This document shows positions 1,148-6,253 of a DNA stretch of 6,253 bases, piece after piece. The notes below the pieces were generated by a model. It saw only the letters and a list, made by a program, of their open reading frames with translations, did not search any database and was not told the origin of the DNA. A program made the translations under genes and the position numbers. Every line of letters starts with the position of its first letter. Positions within the stretch are counted from its first letter, which is position 1. Origin of the DNA: a virus; IMG/VR virus record IMGVR_UViG_3300045988_083067; one strand, given 5' to 3'.

Positions 1148-2866
1148 TTAAACAACATCAGGCTCAGCCTGATAAAAGAAAATACCAGACAAGTCGTTGA
1201 GCCTCTTATGTTTGACCTTACCTCGACATTTCATCAATGCCACAGCAGCCAAACGACGAACAAGAGGTAGTTCATGATAAGGTTTTTCCTTATTATCAGG
1301 AGGCCTGTTATAACGAAAAGAATAGTTACGAAGTTCAAAGTCAACCAAATCCTTATCATTAGAGTCCTCCAAGGTTTGATAAAAATCCACAAGACGATTG
1401 TAATCGTAACGATTCCAAAAAGTAACTATTTTTTCAGAAATTATTCGTAAGAACCTGTCTCGACCAAGGAGTTCTCCTCCCGGAGTGCCGCTGGACCAGA
1501 AGAGTTCTGAACATCCGTCCGTTGAATAAGTTCGAGCAAATTTGGAAATTCCGAGAAAAAATCGATATACACGGGAGAGACGATGAGTAGCTTCCAAATC
1601 AACACCATCGTACAAACGACATTCAGTAAGAATGAGAACATCACTATACGGTAAATTCGCCTGAGGAGAGAGGATATTCCTACATTCATTTGATTTTCCA
1701 TAATTATCTATATAATTTAAATACTGTTTACAAAAAGACAAGATATTTTGTTTAAAAGGAGCATTTACGTTAAATGGGTCACAAGTTATATCTGCACATC
1801 CGCTACGAATGACTCGTGAGGGCGCAGTGAACGCAGAAAATAATAATTGGTAAACACTCGATGGAAGTTTACGAATAGGGTCCGAAAATCGGGGGAATAA
1901 TCGAAGGAGATACGGCCAAGTAGGCTTAATTGTGCGAAAACGTCCATTGCGCTCAACGCAGACACCATCAAGGCACTTATTGGTAACTTCGTCAATTTCG
2001 GCAATTCGTACCTTTTCAGGAAAGAGATTTGATTCTGTAAATCCAATGGAATGGAAGGATTTAGGTCGCACCACTTTTGGCATTTGAGTATAAAAGTTGG
2101 GTAAAGCGACAAAACTATTAACATACGACGCAACATACGGTGCTGCGAATCCTCGCGAGAGTGACGCATCACAACGTCCGTAAGACCAAGCCTTAGATAC
2201 ATTTTCACAAACAGTTTGCGAGAATCGTTCGGAATTGGAAAACAATAGCAAATGCCAATGCGGGCGGAAACTGGTAGGGCCGTATTCTGATACAGCGTAG
2301 TAACGTAATTTTTCATCCGGGTAATAACTTCTTAAACGTTTTAAAAACAAATCCAAGTCACGATTACAAACATAAGGAATCCTATTTGGAACATTATGAT
2401 TAATCTTTCCAAGGATAGATAAAAGCTCCTTAGGCTTCATAGGATAATAAAACTTGATTTCGGGGTCTTTAAAAGTACGCTCAACAGTAGAATTTTTCAA
2501 CTTAATAGAAGCGGAACGAGGAACGCTACGAAAACCAAACAGATAAGTGTTAGTGTCACTATCGTCCAACTCATCAATATTGGGAACGCAGGACACATCC
2601 GCGATATCATCCGTACAAGTTTCAATAACCGAAACCTCCAAAGTAGGAAGAAAGCAAGGAGCATAAGTAAGAGTAACAAAATAAATATAATGGAATTGAG
2701 CAGAATAAGTGGTAAGAAGGTTCGTCTGAACAGCAGAACGACGAAGAACACATGAAGGACAACAACCACAAGAAACAACAACGGATTCATGCGTATACTT
2801 ATTGACAACCGTACGAGGGTTCTGACAACGAGTTACCAACTTATTCTGTAATTCCTTAGTTATCAT
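1148..2866 (-). CDS. VP4: Replication initiation protein VP4 (phiX174 gene A-like HUH rolling-circle endonuclease), 572 aa
   Basis: RCR motif 1 is FVTLTY (aa 63-68, nt 2663-2680). Motif 2 is the HUH element RPHWHLLLF (HWH at nt 2252-2260). Motif 3 carries two tyrosines, YVASY (Y244/Y248, nt 2123-2137), matching the YxxxY of phiX174 protein A. There is an N-terminal Cys cluster, SCGCCPSC, as in microviral Reps. All motif coordinates were checked by back-translation. There is no Walker A motif. Confidence 0.9.
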   Translation of the reverse strand: MITKELQNKLVTRCQNPRTVVNKYTHESVVVSCGCCPSCVLRRSAVQTNLLTTYSAQFHYIYFVTLTYAPCFLPTLEVSVIETCTDDIADVSCVPNIDELDDSDTNTYLFGFRSVPRSASIKLKNSTVERTFKDPEIKFYYPMKPKELLSILGKINHNVPNRIPYVCNRDLDLFLKRLRSYYPDEKLRYYAVSEYGPTSFRPHWHLLLFSNSERFSQTVCENVSKAWSYGRCDASLSRGFAAPYVASYVNSFVALPNFYTQMPKVVRPKSFHSIGFTESNLFPEKVRIAEIDEVTNKCLDGVCVERNGRFRTIKPTWPYLLRLFPRFSDPIRKLPSSVYQLLFSAFTAPSRVIRSGCADITCDPFNVNAPFKQNILSFCKQYLNYIDNYGKSNECRNILSPQANLPYSDVLILTECRLYDGVDLEATHRLSRVYRFFLGISKFARTYSTDGCSELFWSSGTPGGELLGRDRFLRIISEKIVTFWNRYDYNRLVDFYQTLEDSNDKDLVDFELRNYSFRYNRPPDNKEKPYHELPLVRRLAAVALMKCRGKVKHKRLNDLSGIFFYQAEPDVV

Positions 2867-3171
2867 TTTCTATCAGTAAAATTAAGTTCCATATGACGAG
2901 GCTTACGATAACGAGCAAAAGAAATATGAATAAAAGTTCGATATTTTATAAGCTGGTCATAGGGAAAAGAAGAATTCTTAATTAATAAAATAAAAGCGTC
3001 AACAGAAAGGTCGACAGGTTTTAAATCAATAGCATCACCAGTTAAATGCTGAGAGGTCTTAGCGCCATTACACGCACTATTTTGTTCTTCAGTACGAAAA
3101 GCGGAAGTAACAGTAAAATGAATATTCCGATGTAGAAGCCACTCAACAAATTTCATTAACTCAGGATTCAT
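2863..3171 (-). CDS. Peptidase_M15-like (LAS-type zinc D,D- or L,D-peptidase) cell-wall hydrolase, 102 aa; candidate endolysin
   Basis: VTSAFRTEEQNSACNGAKTSQHLTGDAIDL matches the remembered Peptidase_M15_3 core S-G-Y-R-x3-H/Q-N-x3-G-G-A-x-x-S-x-H-x2-G-x-A-x-D. The H-x6-D zinc ligands are H42 and D49 (nt 3025-3048, verified). The third ligand is in TFIHIS (H82), corresponding to the family's fvHvD. No signal peptide is visible. Its TGA stop overlaps the VP4 ATG (ATGA at 2866-2863). Confidence 0.72.
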   Translation of the reverse strand: MNPELMKFVEWLLHRNIHFTVTSAFRTEEQNSACNGAKTSQHLTGDAIDLKPVDLSVDAFILLIKNSSFPYDQLIKYRTFIHISFARYRKPRHMELNFTDRK

Positions 3172-3174
3172 GAC

Positions 3175-3264
3175 TTACGAAAATATTTGAGCAATAGACG
3201 TAAGAAGACTGACAGCAGCTGCAATAACTGCAGCCCAAATTTTAGATTTAGTTTCACTTTTCAT
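3175..3264 (-). CDS. Small single-pass membrane peptide, 29 aa (MKSETKSKIWAAVIAAAVSLLTSIAQIFS); C-terminal part of the 62-aa track ORF 3175..3363
   Basis: An internal ATG lies at 3264-3262. The peptide has a charged N-terminus followed by about 20 hydrophobic residues. Third positions are T-rich like the real genes. It ends 3 nt before the peptidase ATG. The longer start at 3363 is possible, but that N-terminal half lies in the +1 frame of the better-supported ORF 3254..3427. A peptide this short cannot be proven from sequence alone. Confidence 0.35.
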   Translation of the reverse strand: MKSETKSKIWAAVIAAAVSLLTSIAQIFS

Positions 3265-3427
3265 CAGAAATTGCTTTAAAAGTTGAACATTGAGAAATAA
3301 GAAGAAGACAATCAGGACGAAGATTTGAAGCGACGAACTCAGAAATTTCATCAACGAGCACAAGAACAGTTTCGCTCTGATTAGGATTAAACTTTGATTG
3401 GATAGAACACAAGTAATACTTTTCCAT
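3254..3427 (-). CDS. Hypothetical protein, 57 aa (MEKYYLCSIQSKFNPNQSETVLVLVDEISEFVASNLRPDCLLLISQCSTFKAISDEK); not in the ORF track (below its length cutoff)
   Basis: The ATG at 3427-3425 is the first start after the non-coding region and promoter candidate. It has an AT-rich leader like the one before VP1. Third positions are strongly T-rich (about 30 of 57 by hand count), matching VP1/VP2/VP4 usage. The stop is TGA at 3256-3254. I recognise no homology. Confidence 0.45.
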   Translation of the reverse strand: MEKYYLCSIQSKFNPNQSETVLVLVDEISEFVASNLRPDCLLLISQCSTFKAISDEK

Positions 3428-3469
3428 AACTTAAAATTTTAAATTAGACATTGTTTTTTAAAGACAGTA

Positions 3470-3502
3470 CAAAGATATAGATAAAGATTTGAAAAAAACA
3501 AA
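3470..3502 (-). promoter_or_regulatory. Candidate Bacteroidetes-type promoter (-33 TTTG, 21-nt spacer, -7 TATCTTTG) driving the minus-strand gene train
   Basis: In minus sense the sequence reads TTTG (3502-3499), then 21 nt, then TATCTTTG (3477-3470), which matches the Bacteroides consensus TTTG / TAnnTTTG. It lies in the ~19% GC segment, about 43 nt upstream of the ATG at 3427. It is the only non-coding place in the genome where a promoter could sit. Confidence 0.45.
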
Positions 3503-3540
3503 TACTCATACAAACTATTAACATAAATAAACAATAAGCT

Positions 3541-3839
3541 ATGCGGGTGGCAGGCTGGTCTGTGAGTTTGCGCTATAAAGACAAGGGGAGACTGAAAGCT
3601 ATGAGGTAAATAGCTTTCCCTACGGGCAAACTCATGTAGGTTTCACCAATTTATATTTTAAGGAATATAGCAGCGACGAGAGAAAGAAGCTCTCCGGGAG
3701 ATTGCTTACGCGTTGCGAGCGTCAAGCTTAAAGGATGGCAGTACTATAGCCTTACGGCTCTGATTTCAGTCCTAACGTCCCGAAATTCAGTAGGTGTATA
3801 ACCACGCTACGCGCGGTTGCCGAAATTACTCCAAGCAGT
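3541..3839 (-). other. Hairpin-dense non-coding element (candidate complementary-strand ssDNA origin or structured RNA)
   Basis: No ORF longer than about 22 codons exists in any frame. GC is about 47% by hand count. Verified helices, in plus coordinates: 3563-3571/3626-3634 (9 bp) enclosing 3594-3601/3611-3618 (8 bp); 3687-3694/3698-3707; 3704-3711/3719-3727; 3748-3751/3756-3759; 3760-3767/3782-3790; 3800-3807/3811-3818. The fold is better in minus sense, where 3804/3814 is a G.U pair and one loop is GUAA. Confidence 0.5.
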
Positions 3840-3870
3840 AAAACCCGGCACGTATCACTACGAACCGGGT
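3840..3870 (-). terminator. Candidate intrinsic terminator 25 nt downstream of VP2
   Basis: In minus sense: ACCCGG-TT-CGTA-GTGA-TACG-TG-CCGGGT followed by TTT. That is a 6-bp GC-rich stem, a small internal loop, a 4-bp stem and a GNRA (GUGA) tetraloop, giving a 4-U run when the closing T is counted. The U tract is short, so efficiency is uncertain. Confidence 0.4.
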
Positions 3871-3895
3871 AAGAAAACGTAAAGAAGCAAGGGAA

Positions 3896-4984
3896 TTAAC
3901 GACGAGTACTGATAACCTTATGAGGCAAGAAATTGCCTATAGTATTACCAATGCTAGTACCATAATCTACCCATTTGTCAGAATCAAAATATTGGTACTT
4001 CTTCTTTTCATTTCTAGAACGGTACCAAGATTCAATATTCCTACTTCGAGCATTATCCTTGGAAAGACCAAGTCTGAATTCTTCATTATGATAAGCCGCG
4101 GAAGACTGATTAGCTGCAATATTGGCAGCAATTTGAGACTCAGCAATACCAGAAGCAACCTTATTAGAAATATTTTGACCACGAGTACGAGCAGCTGCCA
4201 AAGCTTCTTCAGCTATAGCCTTTTTAGCTTCAGCATAAGAAACGTAACCAGAAGCCATACGCTGATAATAATCTGCAGCCTTAACACTCAAGTCAAGTTG
4301 TTGTTGTTGGTCAAGATACTTATTCAAAATACCTTTAGCCTCATTATCAAGAAGCATGCCAGAACGCTGAGCACGCATGATAAGACCTGTCATCGCCAAG
4401 TTATCAGCCTCTTGTTGCTCCTTAGCATAACCAAGCTGAGCACGAGCCAATCCGGTAGATTTCAAATAATTACGAGTTTCATCAGTAAGCTTTCCCCAAT
4501 CAATATTAGAAAGAGTCTCCATTGCCTTGGCATCAGCAAGCTGTCTAGCACCTTGCAATTGAGATTTCTCAGATTGCATCAACTCGTATTGAAAAATATT
4601 ACCAATGGAAGAACCTATGCCAGAATAATCAGCCTGAAAAGGTTGCATAACGGCAGAACCAGCAGAAAAAGCAGAATCGCCAGCACCGGCAGACTGAGCA
4701 ACACCGGCAGAACCTCCATTCATCATTAAATAAGGATTTAAACCAGCCTCTTCGAGACGTTGACGTTGGGCAGAAGCAGTGTTATAAGCATTTTCCTTAT
4801 TCCACATATTTTCCTGCCAATTACGCTGCTGTATCGCCATACGTTCGTTAAACTGATTATTCATCTGATTAATTTTGTAGTTCATCCGGTTAGTCTCCTG
4901 GACATTTTGTCTATTCTGCGAATTTTGAATTACAGAAGAACCAAAGTCAAGAAGACCACCAGCGATTGAACCAAGAAGACCCAT
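3896..4984 (-). CDS. VP2: Minor capsid / DNA pilot protein VP2 (phiX174 H analogue), 362 aa
   Basis: There is a Gly-rich N-terminus (MGLLGSIAGGLLDFG) and a Q/N-rich segment. The block YNTASAQRQRLEEAGLNPYLMM (nt 4721-4786, verified) resembles the NTA.QR...AGLNP.L block of gokushovirus/alpavirus VP2. A long Ala/Gln/Glu-rich, probably helical, middle region is followed by a basic C-terminus. The start overlaps the upstream stop (TAATG at 4986-4982). Confidence 0.8.
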   Translation of the reverse strand: MGLLGSIAGGLLDFGSSVIQNSQNRQNVQETNRMNYKINQMNNQFNERMAIQQRNWQENMWNKENAYNTASAQRQRLEEAGLNPYLMMNGGSAGVAQSAGAGDSAFSAGSAVMQPFQADYSGIGSSIGNIFQYELMQSEKSQLQGARQLADAKAMETLSNIDWGKLTDETRNYLKSTGLARAQLGYAKEQQEADNLAMTGLIMRAQRSGMLLDNEAKGILNKYLDQQQQLDLSVKAADYYQRMASGYVSYAEAKKAIAEEALAAARTRGQNISNKVASGIAESQIAANIAANQSSAAYHNEEFRLGLSKDNARSRNIESWYRSRNEKKKYQYFDSDKWVDYGTSIGNTIGNFLPHKVISTRR

Positions 4985-5466
4985 TACTCAGTAGAAGCAG
5001 CATCAGCGGAAGCAGCAGCCGCTTTTTCTGCTTCTTGTTCAGCATTTTTAGCATCAATTAATTCTTGAACTTGAGATTCAAGACGCTCAGCATAAGCCGA
5101 CAAATCCTTAGACCAGGCAATAATTTCAGAGGGAGACTGAACATGACGGGAACGAACCGTTGACAAAAGGTCATCATCAGACATCGTATCCATTACTTGC
5201 TGAATCTGGGAAACAGACTGTTTACCTTGTCCAAACTTAGAAGCAACAGCAATACCGGCACGAGAAGCAAGGTCCTTGGTATGAAGAATCAAACGGATAT
5301 CAGAAGTATAACGCACAGGACGAGATTCATCAGTATCATCAACCTCTACACGAAGCTGCTCGGTAGAATCAAATTCGGGAGCAACTGCAAAAGCATCCGG
5401 CTCAATATTAGGAATAAGTCCAGAACCTTGTTCCAAACTATTCAAATCATTAAATTTTCCAATCAT
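4984..5466 (-). CDS. Acidic 160-aa protein; positional candidate for internal scaffolding protein (VP3 / phiX174 B analogue)
   Basis: It lies between VP1 and VP2 and is strongly acidic (DDTDES, MSDDD). The C-terminus is helical and charged (LESQVQELIDAKNAEQEAEKAAAASADAASTE). Third positions are T-rich. I recognise no diagnostic motif, so the function is assigned by position and composition only. Confidence 0.6.
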   Translation of the reverse strand: MIGKFNDLNSLEQGSGLIPNIEPDAFAVAPEFDSTEQLRVEVDDTDESRPVRYTSDIRLILHTKDLASRAGIAVASKFGQGKQSVSQIQQVMDTMSDDDLLSTVRSRHVQSPSEIIAWSKDLSAYAERLESQVQELIDAKNAEQEAEKAAAASADAASTE

Positions 5467-5480
5467 AAATAAAACAATTT

Positions 5481-6253
5481 TTAATAAGGAACACCATCAC
5501 GAGACAAATTACGGGCAACATGGCAACCAATATAAGAATTAATCAATAACTGATCAGTATCCCAGGTAGAATCAGCACTCACACCAAATATAGGATCAAG
5601 AACAGAGGGGTTAACCTTAAAGAACTTGTAGTTCAAAACAACTCTATTATCCTCATTAATATCACCTTCATTGTATCCAAAACCAAACCATCCGGAAAGA
5701 AGAGATTCTGTGACAGGAGAAACCCAAGACTTAAGAGTAGTAGTAAAAGCACCATTGATAACATCAAGCTTAGTTTTCCAATTAAAATAACGAGGGTTAT
5801 ACCCAGCGTTAAACAGATTGACTACAGAAGCTTTTGGAGAATTGAAAATTTGTGTCATAGGAAGAACTTCCATACCAATGTTATCAAACTCAGGAATCGG
5901 AAGAGACTCAGCATCAGTAACCAATAACTGTCCATCCTGACCGGTCAAAGTATAATCAAGAAGAGGAACAGCATGATAAATACACATAACAACACAATGC
6001 TCATTAGTGGTATATTCAAAAGTTCCATTACCAGCACCAACACCTTTACCGGCAATAACAGCAGTATCACCATCAGCAGCAAGGTTATTATTAACAACTT
6101 CACTGATATCAAGATTACGAGAAATACCACCAATATAGGTACACAAATTGGAAAGAGCTTGGGGCAAGTTCACACCAAAGTGTTTACGAATTTGTTCGCG
6201 GTAGTCACTATCACCAGACTGACTGATTTCTTTCCAACGTTGAAGAGCTTCAG
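5481..6253 (-). CDS. VP1: Major capsid protein VP1, C-terminal part (6199-6253 duplicates 1-55); joined protein is 615 aa
   Basis: Track ORF 5481-6173 is the C-terminal 230 aa. Its listed first residue is really an internal GTG (Val). The frame stays open upstream to 6253 (...RWKEISQSGDSDYREQIRKHFG-VNLPQALSNL...). The low coordinate of each codon is 0 mod 3 in both parts. The stop is TAA at 5483-5481. Confidence 0.9.
   Translation of the reverse strand, partial: EALQRWKEISQSGDSDYREQIRKHFGVNLPQALSNLCTYIGGISRNLDISEVVNNNLAADGDTAVIAGKGVGAGNGTFEYTTNEHCVVMCIYHAVPLLDYTLTGQDGQLLVTDAESLPIPEFDNIGMEVLPMTQIFNSPKASVVNLFNAGYNPRYFNWKTKLDVINGAFTTTLKSWVSPVTESLLSGWFGFGYNEGDINEDNRVVLNYKFFKVNPSVLDPIFGVSADSTWDTDQLLINSYIGCHVARNLSRDGVPY
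6199..6253. repeat. Terminal direct repeat, copy 2 (duplicate of 1-55)
   Basis: Exact 55/55 identity with 1-55. The offset of 6198 is divisible by 3, so the VP1 frame is preserved across the junction. Confidence 0.95.

Follow-up and report, generated by a model that had tools for sequence, protein, structure and literature searches.

A modular structured non-coding region as a candidate single-strand initiation signal in a microvirus

Microviruses and conjugative plasmids both enter cells as single strands in need of priming. To our knowledge, the start of copying of the injected strand has been worked out only for phages of E. coli. The complementary-strand origin of phages G4, St-1 and alpha3 is primase-dependent and comprises three hairpins in an intergenic region. 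Plasmids possess ssi and Frpo elements for priming of the entering single strand (PMC11541004), and intergenic hairpins in microviruses have previously been proposed as minus-strand origins (PMC9865509). The DNA analyzed here is a 6,253-nucleotide stretch from a virus (IMG/VR record IMGVR_UViG_3300045988_083067), referred to throughout as the window, which contains a hairpin-rich non-coding region at positions 3541-3895. We give about an even chance to the view that this region is a modular single-strand initiation signal, i.e. a complementary-strand origin, carried on the virion strand.

The proposed functional likeness to a G4-type origin is based on where the region lies, which strand is structured, the chemistry of its loops and its distribution. 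Both consist of stable intergenic hairpins in the coding-sense strand of a microvirus genome, with loops that include GCGNAGC and C-GTTA-G and with conserved unpaired blocks containing CTG beside the hairpins. The phiX174-type alternative, a PriA primosome assembly site, is a hairpin activating the PriA ATPase and has no sequence consensus. The present region is about twice as long, is composed of separable, exchangeable modules with a multi-helix junction and a long-range stem, and its host phylum is most likely the Bacteroidota. The sso elements of rolling-circle plasmids are also similar in being non-coding imperfect palindromes of a few hundred nucleotides that are strand-specific and exchanged as cassettes independently of Rep, though no homology was seen. 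Both ssiA of RSF1010 and Frpo of F are folded single-stranded DNAs that priming enzymes of the host or the plasmid recognize as the strand enters; in contrast to Frpo and the M13 minus origin, which depend on RNA polymerase and a hairpin that restores a duplex promoter, no -33/-7 or -35/-10 promoter is rebuilt within the fold here. The hairpins described in reekeekee- and roodoodoo-microviruses are likewise intergenic, show compensatory changes and were proposed as minus-strand origins, but they are one or two simple hairpins of 13-64 nucleotides (PMC9865509), as against a 330-nucleotide multi-module region exchanged between distant lineages.

The initial annotation of this DNA treated the region as one 355-nucleotide element. 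Comparison with relatives shows instead a set of at least four separable modules, which in the minus sense follow the pilot-protein stop (3896) in the order hairpin T, module M2, a variable site, a linker hairpin, module M1, and an AT-rich stretch with a promoter. The features of the region are as follows.

3843-3870, minus: hairpin T, 12 bp, GC-rich with one mismatch and a GUGA/GTGA loop
3840-3842, minus: T/U run after hairpin T
3660-3832, minus: module M2, a five-helix junction with a 4-bp closing stem
3819-3822 with 3671-3674, minus: helix P1 of M2, the 4-bp closing stem
3811-3817 with 3801-3807, minus: helix P2 of M2, loop GTA
3760-3767 with 3782-3790, minus: helix P3 of M2, with a bulged A and an invariant G.T(U)
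3748-3751 with 3756-3759, minus: helix P4 of M2
3704-3711 with 3719-3727, minus: helix P5 of M2
about 3648-3667: variable site, where some relatives have inserts of 53-161 nucleotides, among them module M4 at 152-161 nucleotides
3639-3647, minus: linker mini-hairpin GGT-GAA-ACC, just after the variable site
3541-3634, minus: module M1, a three-helix module with a long-range stem around two hairpins
3626-3634 with 3563-3571, minus: 9-bp long-range stem of M1
3618-3626, minus: M1 hairpin CCC-GTA-GGG, inside the long-range stem
3594-3601 with 3611-3618, minus: M1 hairpin AAAGCTAT/ATAGCTTT, loop TTACCTC, inside the long-range stem

Hairpin T begins 26 nucleotides past the pilot-protein stop and is kept in 72 relatives; in Microvirus mar62 and mar63 its stem is altered and the GUGA(U) loop retained. 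Between the helices of M2 lie the invariant unpaired blocks AGTACTGCCATCC, GCAACGCGTA and CGCTGCTATAC together with a pyrimidine tract, and the M2 alignment holds two copies of TAWACMCC (GGTTATACACC and GCTATACCCC). In M1 the hairpins are followed by a 23-nucleotide pyrimidine-rich single strand, likewise enclosed by the long-range stem, and M1 has the conserved tail CAGACCAGCCTGCCACCC. M4, an optional insert of 85-161 nucleotides between M2 and M1, was seen in eight relatives (L003, L014, L016, L018, L020, L087, L089 and L097); it begins with GTCGCTTGCGACCCC, and one version carries GCGCGAAGCGC and a 15-bp hairpin.

Relatives were gathered through the Rep protein (34 from IMG/VR), through a DNA pattern (14) and as metagenome contigs (60). 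The modules are retained in about 100 relatives, and T, M2 and M1 are all present in every relative represented by a full-length contig. Identity to the window is 80-92% for M2 and 85-98% for M1, the nearest whole genomes being about 85% identical and the Rep proteins 76-91%. RNAalifold was run on 46 distinct M2 sequences, in which 97% of the cells were paired and 10 pairs had changed on both sides; the alignment of M1 plus linker (81 distinct sequences) gave 98.7% and 8 pairs, and in neither case did any of 500 shuffles reach the same level. Linker pairs 9/15 and 10/14 covary (GC:50/AU:28 and CG:69/UA:11). A covariance model of M2 scored the window at 200 bits and matched 59 metagenome loci. 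Conservation and compensatory change, named in the initial annotation as checks on the element, were both found. Because the structure is kept in every full-length relative and shows strong covariation it is, judged from the alignments, real and selected.

Wobble pairs indicate the strand. Counted in the window-minus sense, M2 has G.U and A.C pairs in a ratio of 200:20; one G.U is found in 46/46 sequences and another in 42/46, and both are mismatches on the plus strand. The structured strand of M2 is therefore the minus strand of the window, i.e. the coding and presumed virion strand. M1, with three G.U pairs in 1,782 cells, is nearly pure Watson-Crick and therefore uninformative in this respect. 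Folding energies were compared with those of dinucleotide-shuffled controls, another check named initially, and the minus strand was better than its shuffles with RNA parameters (z = -2.86; 0/100 as good) as well as with DNA parameters (z = -2.79). The plus strand gave z = -0.58 and -2.04, respectively. As a test of strand, the fold-energy comparison does not discriminate between the two.

Four independent hairpins carry C-GNA-G or C-GNNA-G loops. This motif is found in P2 in 41/46 sequences, in helix M1-P2 in 72/81 and in the linker in 69/81, while P4 has C-GNNA-G in 34/46 and C-GNA-G in seven more. On the minus strand of the 355-nucleotide non-coding region four such motifs occur against 0.43 expected (P about 0.002), and on the plus strand there are none. 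P2 holds GCGTAGC and M1 holds CCCGTAGGG (CCCGAAGGG in most relatives); in most relatives, too, the linker reads GGC-GAA-GCC, which contains GCGAAGC, and P4 reads C-GTTA-G. The loops had been assigned to the GNRA class at first. The third loop base of P4 is a pyrimidine in 31/46 sequences, so the loops are not GNRA, and C-GNA-G/C-GNNA-G is the better description. According to a 2026 review of mini-hairpin DNA, hairpins of the types GCGNAGC and GCGNNAGC are extraordinarily stable as DNA, their RNA versions are far weaker, and the DNA forms are poorly bound by the single-stranded-DNA-binding protein, SSB (PMC13037366). The review places a mini-hairpin of this kind, GCGAAAGC, where primase starts in the complementary-strand origin of G4, with GCGTTAGC in St-1 and alpha3; others are in ssiA of RSF1010 (CCGAAGG) and in the single-strand promoters of phage N4 (PMC13037366). 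The mini-hairpin motif of G4-type origins and ssi elements is present in this region, CCCGAAGGG of M1 being the counterpart of the ssiA hairpin. Counts of mini-hairpins across whole genomes were also considered for strand assignment and were too noisy.

In the mechanism that we propose, host SSB would cover the circle after injection, and the hairpins of T, M2, the linker and M1 would fold in spite of it, several of them capped by the stable, SSB-poor C-GNA-G/C-GNNA-G mini-hairpins. A host priming factor would then recognize the exposed fold and the conserved unpaired blocks and lay down a primer for minus-strand synthesis. From phiX174-like biology and the T-richness of the strand we infer that the virion strand is the coding strand; the action of the element as DNA and the identity of its host reader are inferred as well, direct recognition by primase, as in G4-type origins, being favoured over RNA polymerase. 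If this is correct, a G-to-A change in the GNA loops (as in CGGCAAAAGCCG) would abolish priming. For the microviruses of the Bacteroidota gut flora the region would offer a concrete candidate that is conserved, backed by covariation and made up of defined, clonable modules.

The distribution of the modules extends beyond the group of the window (class A). M2 occurs at 72-84% identity in a second group (class B: mar40, mar45, mar49 and the L017/L023 group), none of whose proteins was detected with those of the window (tblastn, 1e-5) and whose Rep has 355-390 residues compared with about 570 in class A. The presence of M2 alongside an undetectably related Rep therefore fits a reader supplied by the host and not the phage Rep. 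Class B has M2 without M1, mar63 has M1 without M2, and Dulem virus 262 has the first 40 nucleotides of M2 only. In mar49, mar63 and two further microviruses the slot separating M2 from M1 is taken by a sister module, M3; this module was also found in two conjugative plasmids of Bacteroides uniformis, pBUN1 (NZ_AP019725; 7001-7139 of the extracted sequence L124) and NZ_CP072237, and in a metagenomic conjugative-element scaffold (MT836100; L120, about 4990-5090). In these elements M3 lies in an intergenic gap immediately past the traM-traN operon and an M23 peptidase gene and is antisense to its neighbours, which, by gene orientation, is the arrangement of Frpo. Neither M1 nor M2 was found in 72,556 plasmids (PLSDB), a difference from ssiA and Frpo, and M4 had no PLSDB match either. 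That the modules are common to phages with unrelated Rep proteins and to conjugative DNA would be best explained by a host-factor reader, and exchange between distant microviruses, together with the plasmid relative, suggests that they may be a common currency of DNA that enters as a single strand.

Two further observations concern this distribution. MT836100, although deposited as 'Bacteriophage sp.', is a conjugative-element fragment with TraM, a DUF4138 protein, taken as TraN following the annotation of pBUN1, and a PAPS-reductase-like gene. In the porcine microvirus MT135347 (L119), positions 2564-2711 hold a variant M2 (model score 19 bits, E = 0.0045) that keeps the 5' part (TAGTAACTGTCGGTAACC, P2, GGTTAAGCACC) and the 3' end (GCTATACACC) and differs in its interior.

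Horizontal acquisition, one of the alternatives raised in the initial annotation, is partly right, since the modules behave as exchanged cassettes between distant microviruses; as to what the region does, the origin remains our reading. A stronger version of the idea is that the region is a selfish, non-autonomous mobile insertion (a miniature inverted-repeat transposable element or PATE-like) with no role for the phage. The patchy, modular distribution over unrelated microviruses, in both orientations, and the single insertion hot spot would suit it. We nevertheless regard it as most unlikely: the region is in every full-length relative and at one fixed position per genome class, M1 (85-98%) is more conserved than the whole genome (about 85% for the closest relatives), neither terminal repeats nor duplicated target sites came to notice, and there is no partner transposase. 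Besides its absence from the plasmid collection, a pattern scan of 185,579 genomes yielded only two hits, in Cytophagaceae and Alcaligenaceae, and these are chance matches because the M2 model does not match them.

The orientation of the modules was compared with codon usage. Third codon positions in class A are 9-19% A and 23-59% T, with every genome except mar63 at 40-59% T; in class B they are 45-58% A (29% in mar49) and 5-17% T. Set against the group of the window (window, L001, L005 and L009), the group with the short Rep (L006, L007, L010, L023, L070 and L117-L119) has 43-58% A, or 29-33% in two genes. The hairpin modules are on the T-rich strand in both classes. If T-richness marks the packaged strand, class B would package the strand antisense to its genes, and the virion strand would be the one with the element in every case. 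The rule equating the T-rich with the virion strand was weakened on inspection of isolates: the coding strand of phiMH2K (L121) is A/C-rich like that of class B, and those of Chp2 and SpV4 are T-rich.

Several results weigh against a virion-strand initiation signal. In class B, as well as in L117 and L118 (M3) and L119 (variant M2), every gene lies antisense to the structured strand, an inversion that conflicts with a virion-strand role unless class B packages the other strand. The G.U excess may be inflated by C-to-T pressure on the T-rich minus strand. Some features would be just as typical of an RNA, namely about 13% G.U pairs, the GUGA loop of T and the CU-rich single strands. For M2 the sense and antisense strands fold with nearly the same energy, and for M1 the energies favour the other strand. 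Finally, a blastn search of 50,697 phage records revealed no similarity to the G4, St-1, alpha3 or phiX origins, its matches lying only in gut microviruses (Dulem, bajarodmic, mar). The initial suggestion that virion-strand hairpins serve as the complementary-strand origin is upheld in part and is the best supported of the readings, on indirect evidence: the coding-sense strand, the loops, the lack of an Rfam match or promoter and the location between hairpin T and the next promoter speak for it, and the inversion in class B does not.

A more speculative extension, which we consider improbable, is that M1-M4 form a shared pool of single-strand entry cassettes of Bacteroidota mobile DNA whose orientation marks the entering strand. 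In that event the second group (mar40, mar45 and mar49, the L023 group, MG945282 and MT135347), whose cassettes are antisense to every gene and whose third codon positions are A-rich (29-58%, mostly 43-58%) and not T-rich, would carry in its virions the strand opposite to all of its genes. No microvirus of negative sense would have been described before these. Their cassette could work in the manner of Frpo, as a priming site for DNA synthesis and as the source of early transcription into the small open reading frames (ORFs) downstream. The inverted cassette and the mirror-image codon skew in any case raise the question of which strand this second group packages. If class B packages the coding strand, M2 would there be an antisense RNA or have some other role.

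That possibility keeps alive the main rival explanation, in which M2 and M1 are structured non-coding RNAs in the window-minus sense, produced by read-through of T or from an unrecognized promoter, with targets in the host or the phage, reached for instance through the CU-rich single strands, or with a role in lysogeny. A gene with its own promoter fits either orientation and would explain the inversion in class B, where the G.U excess persists (G.U:A.C = 27:4). G.U pairs are common and two of them nearly invariant, the RNA-parameter z-score separates the minus strand (-2.86) from the plus (-0.58), T has a GNRA-type loop, and mobile elements do share non-coding RNAs. Against this, M1 is essentially devoid of G.U pairs, and most of the loops are triloops or tetraloops of the GNYA type, forms with little stability as RNA. 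A scan of 3428-3895 against Rfam 15 gave no match at E-values up to 10, in line with the initial annotation, which recognized no known RNA family in it, and none was obtained for M2, M3 or M4 from relatives and plasmid; the hits at relaxed thresholds (snoZ39, RAGATH-25) lay elsewhere in the sequences and were due to chance. ARAGORN found no tRNA or tmRNA. An exact-consensus scan of 81 class A and 8 class B sequences, which weak promoters could escape, found no TTTG/TAnnTTTG promoter ahead of M2 in the M2 sense, and directly upstream in class A stands the GC-rich hairpin with its U run. Neither M2 nor M1 contains a conserved promoter, 3200-4100 lacks any sigma-70-like site, and inspection by eye showed no terminator after either module. 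On balance an RNA role is rather unlikely.

By-eye likenesses to a DnaA box (TTATACACC) and, for TAGCGT in P2, to the CS-6 motif of ssoA were set aside as not conserved among relatives or outside the stem.

The single-strand initiation signal proposed here would occupy a gap in transcription, bounded by the hairpin T and the following features on the far side of M1.

3503-3540, minus: AT-rich spacer between M1 and the promoter
3470-3502, minus: Bacteroidota-type promoter TTTG-N21-TATCTTTG, upstream of a 57-residue ORF

The promoter is the sole match to TTTG-N17-23-TAnnTTTG in the window, has a counterpart at the corresponding position in 36-46 of the 81 class A relatives, and is the downstream edge of the non-transcribed gap. 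We read hairpin T as terminator-like: a GC-rich hairpin followed by UUUU is present and conserved, though a simple terminator scan does not report it. The region is therewith placed between a terminator-like hairpin and the next promoter. It might be taken for a 3' untranslated region or terminator block that stabilizes or ends the mRNA of the capsid operon and insulates it from the next promoter, as it comes directly after the pilot stop and T, with hairpin and U run, resembles an intrinsic terminator. A covarying multi-helix structure of some 300 nucleotides with invariant unpaired blocks exceeds the needs of termination, the structured strand is antisense to the genes in class B and the terminator scan was empty; we hold such a function to be very unlikely.

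The AT-rich spacer is likely an attachment region. TGTTAAT directly after M1 is kept across class A, and the spacer holds the conserved TTATGTTAAT at 3516-3526 (plus TATTAACATAA, minus TTATGTTAATA). By eye, TTATGTTAATA matches 10 of 11 positions of the XerD arm of E. coli dif. In L091 (1-9334; contig ERZ836760 NODE-1017, 34.8 kb), a relative of the window's genome is integrated in bacterial DNA, and the phage sequence stops about 95 nucleotides after M1. Partial copies were also seen in contigs of 27 and 88 kb (L101 and L113). Proviruses of Bacteroidota microviruses are thought to use XerC/D at dif (PMC3091885).

These findings bring up the idea that the modules are some other cis-acting DNA signal, namely a signal for packaging, the plus-strand origin or site of nicking by Rep, or an accessory fold assisting integration of the single-stranded genome by Xer/dif, as in CTXphi. 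The region is the sole long non-coding one, it adjoins both the dif-like arm and the phage-host junction of L091, the use of XerC/D by Bacteroidota microvirus proviruses would be in keeping with it (PMC3091885), and TAWACMCC is present twice. A Rep-specific origin is unlikely, however, as M2 is common to phages with undetectably related Reps (about 570 against 355-390 residues). In L091 both M1 and M2 are intact, with the junction located outside them; M2 occurs without M1 in class B, and M1 without M2 in other genomes; and a forked dif hairpin is a much simpler structure than this fold. An attP of the CTXphi type, with two inverted dif-like sites in a forked hairpin, was not found, there being a single dif-like arm (3516-3526) outside the modules. 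Signals of this class are, in our estimation, quite improbable as the explanation of the modules.

The composition of the region was as initially described, with 47.3% GC in 3541-3895 against 18.6% in the adjacent 3428-3540 (whole genome 38.7%), and it remains the only long non-coding region of the genome. No ORF of at least 40 residues with a start codon lies within 3428-3895. Its non-coding status accordingly stands; the figure of 20-22 codons given for the longest open frame was too low, since stop-free stretches reach 47-53 codons, none of them kept as an ORF among relatives. All nine helices listed in the initial annotation pair as it described, and the string C-T(T)-A-C-G does occur five times (3620, 3705, 3751, 3807 and 3858). 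The helix 3687-3694/3698-3707 is not conserved, its stretch being a pure pyrimidine tract in many relatives. Three features were absent from that list, namely the M1 hairpin CCC-GNA-GGG (3618-3626), the linker mini-hairpin (3639-3647) and the stem closing M2. In GenBank a 'hypothetical protein' of Dulem virus 257 (XCD03224.1; L002, 2580-2783) is drawn across M1/M2 and probably represents structured non-coding DNA mistaken for a gene, and the annotated Rep coding sequences of mar40 and mar45 (L006 and L007) extend about 30 nucleotides into M2.

The window represents a complete circular microvirus genome of 6,198 nucleotides. An exact 55-nucleotide terminal direct repeat (1-55 = 6199-6253) shows the contig to be circularly permuted. 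Every recognizable gene is on the minus strand.

1130 down to 3, then 6251 down to 5484, minus: major capsid protein, spanning the contig ends
4984-5466, minus: scaffold protein
3896-4984, minus: DNA pilot protein
3254-3427, minus: 57-residue ORF
2863-3171, minus: peptidase
1148-2866, minus: Rep, 572 residues

The major capsid gene, which might appear disrupted, is intact and crosses the ends of the permuted contig. The nearest relatives in GenBank are faecal microviruses (Dulem virus 236, Dulem virus 257, the bajarodmic viruses and Microvirus mar62), and the bacterial flank of the integrated relative L091 carries Usp-family and TPR/SH3-domain genes. On account of the faecal relatives, the match to a Bacteroidota promoter and this flank, the host of the phage is most likely a member of the Bacteroidota. 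In Rep, the match to a replication-initiator PHROG is confined to residues 8-273, and no assignment was obtained for the C-terminal 300 residues. A 181-residue ORF on the plus strand (108-653), antisense to the capsid gene and without a PHROG match, is probably an artefact that arises from the strong compositional skew.

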